In this document: in pieces, positions 58,101 to 61,100 of the stretch
How the letters are laid out: every line of letters starts with the position of its first letter
Numbering within the stretch: the stretch's first letter is position 1
Assembly: GCF_003334305.1 (NCBI RefSeq)
Contig: NZ_QOWS01000004.1
Origin: Escherichia coli
Lineage (GTDB): Bacteria > Pseudomonadota > Gammaproteobacteria > Enterobacterales > Enterobacteriaceae
Length of the DNA stretch: 64,000 bases
Direction: 5' to 3' (one strand)
Position numbers: made by a program

Positions 58101-61100
58101 ATCCCAAGCGATAGTAGATGCAAGACAGTTCTTTAGCGAACACCCGGAATATATATCATCAGCAGAACTGGAGCAAAATCTATATCGCGAATTTGCACAG
58201 GTTACTACAGTTCCAGCTTATAAAGAGATGAGTATGTATCAATTGCTTATCATTTCACAAGATCGTTTAACTCATTAAATAAGGATCTACACGCTTTTTG
58301 CGTGTAGATTCTTATAAATTTCTGACTACGACAGATGTTTAATTTTTTAAATTATCGTCTTTATTCTCGATTTTTGTGTCTTCACCCTCAATGAATTTAT
58401 CTTCTGAAGAGAGCTGTTCATCTGGAACAGGTTGTCCAGCATTCTCCACATCTTCAAGTCACAGCAGAAGACGTAATATTTCATCTATATTTTCGAAGCT
58501 AACATAATCGTAGCGACGATGGGTAGCATAAATTTTTCGTGCTAATTTTTTATCTGTGATAATTGGTATTCCGATTTCCTTTGCATATTTCCTTACGGCT
58601 AAGGCTACCTCATTAGTTTCTCTTACAGAAATCAATGGAATAGGTGAAAGATGTGGCTTAAAGTATATCCCTATTGCAATGTGAGTAGGGTTGGCAATCA
58701 TCAAACGACTATTACTGACATCAGACTTCAATTGCTCAGAAAGAATTTCCTGATTCGCTCTCTGCGTTTAGACTTAATTTCTGGATTTCCTTCTTGCTCC
58801 TTGTATTCTCTTTTAACTTCTTGTTTATCCATTTTCATATCTTTCATAAATAAAAAATATTCAGCGATAAAATCAAAAATTAAGACAATTATCATACTGC
58901 CGAGACAATACAGTATGAGAAGGAATAGCATCTCTCCCCAATCTGATAATAAAGATATGATATCTCCATCAAGAGTTTTAAAAAGCAGTGATTTATGATT
59001 ACTCCAAAATACTTTGATCGCCAATGCAAAAAAACAATATAAAGAATTGCTTTAACAAATTCTTTTACGGTTTTTAAGCCAAATATACGCTTTAAGCCAT
59101 TTACTGGATTCAATGAATCAAACTTAAATTTAACAGCTTCAGTTGCTAATTGCATTTTACTTTGAAACCAGGAGACAAGTATTGTTGTGAACATGCAAAC
59201 CAGCAAAAAAGGAATGTTCGTTTTCAACCAACCAACCCCCATAGCTTTAAAATAGTCCCAAATATCTGGTTTAGCGTTATGATCAAGGATGTATTCAAGA
59301 ATCGACATAATGTGATGCACATCAAAAACATATCCGAGATATAAAGTACCCACAAGCATTATTACAGAGATGGTTAAGTCTCTACTTTTTAGAATTTGCC
59401 CTTTTTTAGAAGCATCCTGGAGTTTCTTTTGTGTTGGCTTTTCAGTTTTATTGGCCATGAAACACTCTATTTCTCAATGTATAGTTGCAATTGTTCTGGG
59501 AAAAAGGATAACGGCATTACTCGTTCAGCCAGTATTGGGGCAAAATAAATAATTAATATTAAAAATGCCAGCGCACTTTTGACAGTCAGTGAAATGGCAA
59601 AAGCATTTAGTTGTGAAGCATAACGTGCCAGCAATCCCAGGACAGCCTCACCGCCCAGCATAACGGCAATCACGGGGCTTGCGTAAACGATAGTATGAGT
59701 CATTATGTTATTAATATATGAGAATAAAGGCTCTAATTTAGGAAAATTAAAATTGCCTGAAGGCCATAAATTATAACTTTGCCAAAGAGTTTCCAGAATA
59801 AAGTTCATTCCACCTTTAGTAAGATAAACCGCAGCAGAGAAAAGGTTAAATAATCTTGCTAATTCCGAGGTATCGACACCTGTAGCCGGATCCAAAGTAC
59901 TACTTAATGTTGCACCGCGTTGGTTATCGATAAAGCTACCTATAGCAAGGAAAATCCAAAACGGGGATGCTAATAAGCATGCAATAAACAGCCCTATGAT
60001 AATTTCTCTGGCAGCGAACAAAGCAATATCGATTTCATTTAAGTTCAATAATTCATAGTGGTAATGCTGAACTAATGCACATGATACCACTATTATTATT
60101 GGGTGACAAACTACTGTTGGTATATTCCCACTGGCGAAAAATGGTAACAAATAGAAAGTTGGTGCCAATCGGCAAAAACCGAGCGCTGTAGCAGCCAGCA
60201 GACTATGCAACTGATAGAGTATCGCCTCCCCCATGCTATCCTCTCGCGAATGCTAAATTCAGCATTTCGATACCAAATGAATATAATTTTTCACCATACC
60301 ACCCGCTCATTAAAAAAAAGCAAATACTTACGCACAATAATTTCACGCCAAATGGCAACGTCTGTTCTTGCAACTGCGTTACCGTTTGAAAAAGCCCTAC
60401 CAATAAACCAACAAATGTCGCAACTGCAATAGGTCCTGCAGACATAACTAAAATCAGATACAGCGCCCTATTCCCCGCAAAAACAATATCGTCCATATTT
60501 TTTCCTCAGGGATTAATGGATAGGTCAAAATATTGTAAAATGAGCCCTTTTGATAACATTGTCCAACCGTCCATCGCGACAAACAAAATTAATTTTATCG
60601 GTGTAGATATGGTTACCGGACTCATCATCATCATACCTAACGTTAACAGAACGCTGGATATAACCAGATCCACTACGACAAAGGGTAAATAGATATAAAA
60701 ACCTATAATAAATGCACTTTTTATCTCACTCAATGCATATGCGGGCAGTAACGAGAAAATTGAAATATTATCATCATCGATTATCTCTTCATTGTCTTCA
60801 GAACTATTCACCTTCTGAATCTTTTCAAAAAAGCTAACCAACTCAGGTTCAGAATATTTTATCAAATATGATTTATAACCACTCATGCCTGTCTCAACAA
60901 AATTAACAACCGATGCTACATTATTGAATGAAAGATTCTCATTCTGACTGTTATTATATATTTCCTTCCCAACCGGCATCATTACGAACATTGACAATAG
61001 CAAAGCAACCCCATTAAGTGTCATATTTGATGGCACTTGCTGAAGTCCCAGCGCGTTTCGGACAATAACAAAAACAATCGAGAATTTAATAAAACATGTC

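Follow-up and report, generated by a model that had tools for sequence, protein, structure and literature searches.

Among described systems, the closest counterpart of the locus considered here is epaS of Escherichia coli O157:H7 Sakai/EDL933 (ECs3721 / WP_001284737.1), the intact SctU gene of the second E. coli type III secretion system (ETT2), which forms one continuous 1122-bp open reading frame (ORF; also given in a table of PMC3977695). The intact EpaS protein aligns over residues 1-341 to SpaS/Spa40, the SctU of the SPI-1-type injectisome (PDB 8axk_K, 3c01, 2vt1), with an E value of 8e-108 for 8axk_K. Both proteins have an N-terminal membrane domain, a linker and an NPTH autocleavage site, and EpaS differs in its acidic C-terminal extension of ~30 residues. 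The flagellar paralogue FlhB belongs to the same fold family and has the same NPTH switch (EpaS matches 8z5s_x at E 3e-37 and TIGR00328 with 230 bits). However, this score lies under the FlhB cutoff of 349 bits, and the context of epaS is an injectisome island rather than a flagellar operon. ETT2 as a whole is described, in reviews citing Ren et al. 2004, as a site of widespread deletion, mutation and frameshift, or "mutational attrition" (PMC11068852, PMC3977695, PMC7058095). Here, the epaS copy in a 64-kb stretch of E. coli DNA (contig NZ_QOWS01000004.1 of assembly GCF_003334305.1; 64,000 nucleotides, hereafter the window) was compared with these systems. Gene and locus are those of O157, with epaR (sctT) on one side and the etrA/invH-like pair on the other, and a 1.4-kb segment is 97.2% identical to O157 in DNA sequence. 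Unlike the O157 gene, the copy in the window is interrupted by two −1 frameshifts and a nonsense codon, W334*, and it cannot be translated as one chain. Taken together, the evidence below makes it very probable that this SctU/SpaS/EscU-type export-apparatus switch gene is a non-functional pseudogene in neutral decay.

An alignment of the window gene with the intact 1122-bp alleles of EDL933 (WP_001284737.1) and strain 06-00048, together with nine further alleles, served to place the lesions. The whole epaS (sctU) pseudogene, delimited by the NCBI Prokaryotic Genome Annotation Pipeline (PGAP) and by the alignment to the EDL933 and 06-00048 alleles, occupies 58339..59458 on the minus strand and measures 1120 bp, relative to 1122 bp and 373 aa for the intact allele. 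Compared base by base with the intact alleles, the gene has lost single bases at exactly two sites and acquired one nonsense codon. The first lesion is the shortening of a T8 homopolymer on the gene strand to T7 (59028..59034, minus strand; A7 on the plus strand), which creates a −1 frameshift at codons 142-144. The second is the loss of one C from GCGCC (delC), between 58756 and 58755 on the minus strand, which creates another −1 frameshift at codon 235, immediately behind …KSKRRER. The C that is left has become A at 58755, a change that reads as H236N in the ancestral frame. The third is a TGG>TGA change (58459..58461, minus strand) that produces W334* and cuts off 39 downstream in-frame codons. 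Codon 334 is TGG in all 12 other aligned alleles. A preliminary description of this stretch had recognized epaS as a SpaS/EscU-like switch gene with one frameshift near 58749-58765 and another in the 59000-59040 overlap, which contains an A7 run, and had proposed a pairwise alignment with intact epaS; the identification is borne out by the collinear family matches given below and by the intact-allele alignment, which places each 1-bp indel exactly and within the expected interval. The same description held the gene to span 58459-59458 with two lesions. Its 5′ start stands, as do both frameshifts, but the apparent natural stop at 58459-58461 is the W334* nonsense codon, which brings the lesions to three and extends the true span to 58339-59458. 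Both shifts are −1 and sum to −2, and an in-frame TGA persists at codon 334 when both indels are repaired in silico, which rules out mutual compensation of the two frameshifts. A single continuous reading frame is also not recovered by correcting the sequence, as the TGA stays and the T7 state, present in ~107 genomes, is no read error. The indel-corrected protein differs from intact EDL933 EpaS by 11 residues and the stop.

The two −1 frameshifts and the nonsense codon divide the gene into four pieces, all on the minus strand. Fragment 1 (58892..59458) comprises an ATG and 188 codons, of which approximately the first 143 are native EpaS and correspond to the N-terminal membrane domain, while the remainder is out of frame up to a stop. 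Fragment 2 (58728..59024) carries the middle part in a second frame (…AIKVFWSNH…KREYKEQEGNPEIKSKRRER), and fragment 3 (58459..58731) carries the C-terminal cytoplasmic domain with NPTH in a third frame. The orphaned epaS 3′ end (58339..58458) retains 39 in-frame codons (58342-58458) and the original TAA, encodes the acidic C-terminal tail and is contained in an ORF at 58339..58449. Fragments 1, 2 and 3, three ORFs in three different frames that together span 58459-59458, are collinear on the 367 positions of the SctU equivalog model NF006017: they match positions 1-152, 147-235 and 245-332 with E values of 5e-61, 2e-37 and 1e-43 and scores of 207, 129.6 and 149.6 bits, respectively. All three scores are under the 394-bit cutoff, whereas the intact EDL933 ortholog exceeds it with 573.8 bits. 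The three ORFs are clearly pieces of one gene, far beyond chance, and the homology of the window epaS to SctU is certain. No single ORF in the window reaches the whole-protein cutoff of the SctU family (NF006017, TIGR01404), and no ORF combines the membrane and cytoplasmic domains. The window copy is therefore a pseudogene of an SctU family member and not a member protein. The presence of three fragments in three frames was described correctly beforehand, but these fragments do not rebuild the full protein, as the intact 373-aa gene reaches 58339.

The coding sequence of the NPTH autocleavage motif (AACCCTACTCAC, residues 257-260 in the intact numbering) is kept at 58681..58692 on the minus strand, in the part of the gene that encodes the C-terminal domain, where SctU proteins conserve it; its retention had already been noted. 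Alignment to the cleaved SpaS chains places the autocleavage site at the canonical N257|P258 (3c01_A ends at 257 and 3c01_E starts at 258). The motif is separated by frame from the start of the gene. Translation from the native ATG would yield no more than 188 aa, of which ~143 are native residues and the rest a tail read out of frame, and this product would contain neither the cytoplasmic domain nor NPTH. From the reading frame alone, autocleavage and substrate-specificity switching should be impossible for the window allele, and in all likelihood no switch protein is made from it. The survival of NPTH would then reflect too little time and too few substitutions, not selection. In strain NCTC9082, a further 1-bp deletion in a delC allele removes the first base of the N257 codon (equivalent to 58692) and damages NPTH itself.

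To follow the lesions through the species, short allele-specific queries were searched against 5,426 complete E. coli genomes; a single difference brings the identity of such a query below 99%. The resulting counts, given here for the band of at least 99% identity, are approximate, and the contrasts among them are very large. An 87-mer with T7 is found in 107 genomes, and T8 with the same flanks in 870. An 81-mer with the window combination of delC and C>A is found in 104 genomes, compared with 1,974 for the 81-mer with delC only and 27 for intact GCGCC with window-like flanks; the last count leaves out other intact alleles of this site, such as that of O157, whose flanks have diverged. The 81-mer with the TGA has one full-length exact match, strain A7 itself, and four matches within the band. 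In total, ~2,078 (1,974 + 104) of the 2,954 complete genomes that bear the epaS segment, or ~70%, carry delC, which points to an old lesion spread across a whole clade. At the top of their rankings, the delC+C>A and T7 lists share nearly all accessions, and strain 5444 has delC, C>A and T7 together with TGG at codon 334. Based on these nested allele counts and on shared single-nucleotide polymorphisms (SNPs), an order of events can be inferred. The C of codon 235 would have been lost first, in the ancestor from which a very large clade of E. coli descends; this clade also lost sctC, sctV and sctN through an 8.7-kb deletion. In a subclade of ~105 sequenced genomes, the adjacent C>A change and the slippage from T8 to T7 at codons 142-144 would have followed, and W334* (TGG>TGA) would have arisen last, in strain A7 alone. 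The only recent lesion is W334*, which is the last and the least consequential of the three. Further 1-bp deletions are present in KCTC2571/PRO_A and TUM3755, at positions equivalent to 59430 and 59407.

The island around epaS is extensively degraded. Relative to O157 EDL933, with which the ETT2 locus is otherwise collinear, the stretch of ~8.7 kb that separates the GH15 (pkgA) gene from the final 120 bp of eivJ is absent from the window. The missing segment comprises a ghoT-like gene, eivF, eivG (sctC), eivE, eivA (sctV), eivC (sctN), eivI, one small ORF and the greater part of eivJ. The deletion junction lies at 62227..62235, a 9-bp overlap of both flanks in the BLAST alignment to O157 EDL933, and the eivJ 3′ remnant (62108-62227) now ends no more than 12 bp from the GH15/pkgA gene. 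In 1,932 complete genomes, at least 80% of a 91-mer spanning the junction is covered. The deletion matches the 8.74-kb right-end deletion isoform of ETT2 in the literature (PMC11068852). In the strain A7 record, seven other ETT2 genes are annotated as pseudogenes: ygeF (48703-49193), a ygeK-like LuxR regulator gene (52612-53244), orgA (54113-54692), eprJ/sctI (55439-55770), the needle gene eprI (55790-56030), eprH (56044-57225) and epaO/sctQ (61161-62148). Thus, of the core injectisome gene set, sctC, sctV and sctN are deleted, and sctU, sctQ (epaO), sctI, the needle gene, prgH/eprH and orgA are pseudogenes. The injectisome could not be built irrespective of the state of epaS. The low GC content of the surrounding island (32-36%), the 8.7-kb eiv deletion and the many point-inactivated apparatus genes agree with the "mutational attrition" described for ETT2. 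Relative to the reviews there is no difference in kind, and only the private W334* and the exact allele counts go beyond them.

The age and state of the gene were also assessed from its substitutions. By the Nei-Gojobori method in the ancestral frame, the ratio of non-synonymous to synonymous substitution rates (dN/dS) is 0.76-1.02 among delC alleles, from few substitutions (2-4 synonymous and 6-12 non-synonymous per pair), in contrast to 0.06-0.11 among intact alleles. Substitutions among delC alleles look neutral, and constraint on them is relaxed. Other delC strains differ in the state of the T-run and in extra 1-bp deletions of their own (equivalent to 59430, 59407 and 58692), as would be expected of an already dead gene. 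The scarcity of substitutions behind the dN/dS values is one of several points that weigh against the reading of epaS as a dead gene in neutral decay. The allele counts derive from BLAST identity bands, which may take in a few partial alignments and miss alleles with SNPs in the flanks. The genes epaP, epaQ, epaR, eprK and etrA are intact in strain A7, and phenotypes have been published for degenerate ETT2 islands (PMC11068852). In addition, the allele of FCI55 (NZ_CM172716.1) has the delC-clade haplotype and shares every SNP with the delC-bearing allele of FDAARGOS_433, yet its GCGCC at codon 235 is intact and its T-run is T9. Reversion, recombination or a sequencing or assembly error may have affected the delC site at least once, which slightly weakens a strict single origin of delC.

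These data bear on the suggestion, made in the preliminary description, that the gene was functional recently, and on the corresponding explanation that only epaS inactivation is recent and that the system worked shortly before. The corrected protein is indeed only 11 residues and a stop away from intact EDL933 EpaS, NPTH and the KREYKEQEGNPE segment are kept, and W334* is recent and private to strain A7. In contrast, the presence of delC in ~70% of epaS-bearing complete genomes, a dN/dS of ~1 within the delC clade, the sctC/V/N deletion common to ~1,932 genomes and the breakage of further apparatus genes of the island all argue for an older loss. A recently functional epaS is accordingly unsupported, and a recent loss from a working system is very unlikely.

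A second explanation is that a piece of the gene is retained as a stand-alone product with a residual role outside secretion, the candidates being the N-terminal membrane piece of 188 aa and the C-terminal domain with NPTH. Reports that degenerate ETT2 islands affect surface properties and virulence (PMC11068852, PMC6030553) would be consistent with such a role, as would the intact state of the neighboring epaP, epaQ and epaR in strain A7. In contrast, dN/dS is ~1 among delC alleles, and in other strains fragment 1 is struck by independent extra frameshifts (equivalent to 59430 and 59407). On direct reading of the sequence, neither the TTG at 58731 nor the in-frame ATG (M254) is preceded by a suitably spaced Shine-Dalgarno-like element. 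Retention of a stand-alone fragment is thus highly improbable, and neutral decay of the whole gene is preferred.

Sequencing or assembly errors in an otherwise intact gene were considered as a third explanation, as one of the shifts falls in a 7/8-nt homopolymer, a classic site of error, and W334* is found in one assembly only. However, the exact T7 87-mer recurs in ~107 independent complete genomes from many laboratories and hosts, and the top rows of the ~104 C>A genomes are almost all the T7 genomes. The delC 81-mer is found in 1,974 genomes, and this deletion lies outside any long homopolymer; the TGA, moreover, is still present once both indels are corrected. The exact recurrence of T7 and delC in >100 and ~2,000 independent genomes leads to the rejection of sequencing error, which can be given scarcely any credence.

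The T-run at codons 142-144 is itself variable, as a mutation hotspot would be. At least five length states are found among 13 sampled alleles: T7, T8, T9, TTTTA+T9 and TTTTA+T12. The last two, each in one allele, combine a TTTTA insertion with run expansion and, at +6 nt and +9 nt, are in frame. In FCI55, the epaS frame is broken solely at this run. Transcriptional slippage at T-runs occurs in Shigella mxiE and spa genes, and these length states could suggest that transcriptional or translational recoding at the run, or its use as a contingency locus, rescues or phase-varies epaS expression, much as happens with certain type III secretion genes of Shigella. For the window allele this is rejected, with a practically negligible probability, because restoring the frame at the run leaves the second −1 shift, which lies outside any slippery run, in a non-slippery GCG/AAT context, together with the TGA, because the shifts total −2 and do not compensate each other, because the partners sctV, sctN and sctC are deleted, and because the intact allele is in frame with T8 and has no need of recoding. 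For lineages with intact ETT2, it is very improbable that the T8 tract is a truly hypermutable hotspot acting, now or in the past, as an on/off contingency switch of the secretion system. If true, this would be without functional consequence in the window strain, where both gene and system are already defunct through other defects.

Neutral decay of epaS in this window is an ordinary instance of the well-known decay of ETT2, and the pseudogene status of the gene is already annotated. The 64-kb window is identical at every base (100% identity) to positions 3782858-3846857 of E. coli strain A7, a strain isolated from orangutan faeces (NZ_CP028767.1), and the RefSeq/PGAP annotation of that identical record lists locus AOY58_RS18250 (58339..59458, minus strand) as a pseudogene, "frameshifted; internal stop". 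The importance of the present analysis is small and consists of a confirmation, base by base and by counts across genomes, that ETT2 decay has claimed epaS too in a commensal-type E. coli. The nested series of delC, T7/C>A and W334*, in that order, offers handy markers of lineage. Scoring of "intact ETT2" by gene presence alone should include a check of the codon-235 C deletion, given its presence in ~70% of epaS-bearing complete genomes.

The remaining features of the locus are those of an ETT2 island. On the minus strand, epaP (60506..61171), epaQ (60236..60496) and epaR/sctT (59467..60234) precede epaS, which places epaS directly downstream of the sctR-sctS-sctT export-gate operon genes on the same strand. 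The gene order of the strain A7 annotation, yqeG-yqeHIJK-ygeFGHIJK-orgAB-eprKJIH-etrA-epaSRQPO-eivJ…-pkgA (GH15), is that of ETT2. A search of both strands of 57000-60500 returned no Rfam family at gathering score. An ORF antisense to epaS (58651..58998, plus strand, 115 aa) has no NCBIfam match and is treated as a chance ORF in AT-rich DNA. On the plus strand past the epaS 3′ end are a small InvH-like lipoprotein gene and etrA. The former, a lipoprotein-like ORF of 97 aa (57985-58278, plus strand) just beyond that end and on the strand opposite to epaS, is labelled "hypothetical" in the strain A7 record and "invasion protein" in other strains; it has a weak, sub-threshold match to the C-terminal third of InvH (E 8e-9, 35.7 bits, cutoff 305). 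Finally, the ETT2 genes that are broken differ between lineages. In EDL933, epaR/sctT contains an internal stop and both eprH and the GH15 (pkgA) gene are frameshifted, with epaS, epaO, eprI and eprJ intact, and in strain A7 it is epaR and the GH15 gene that are intact.
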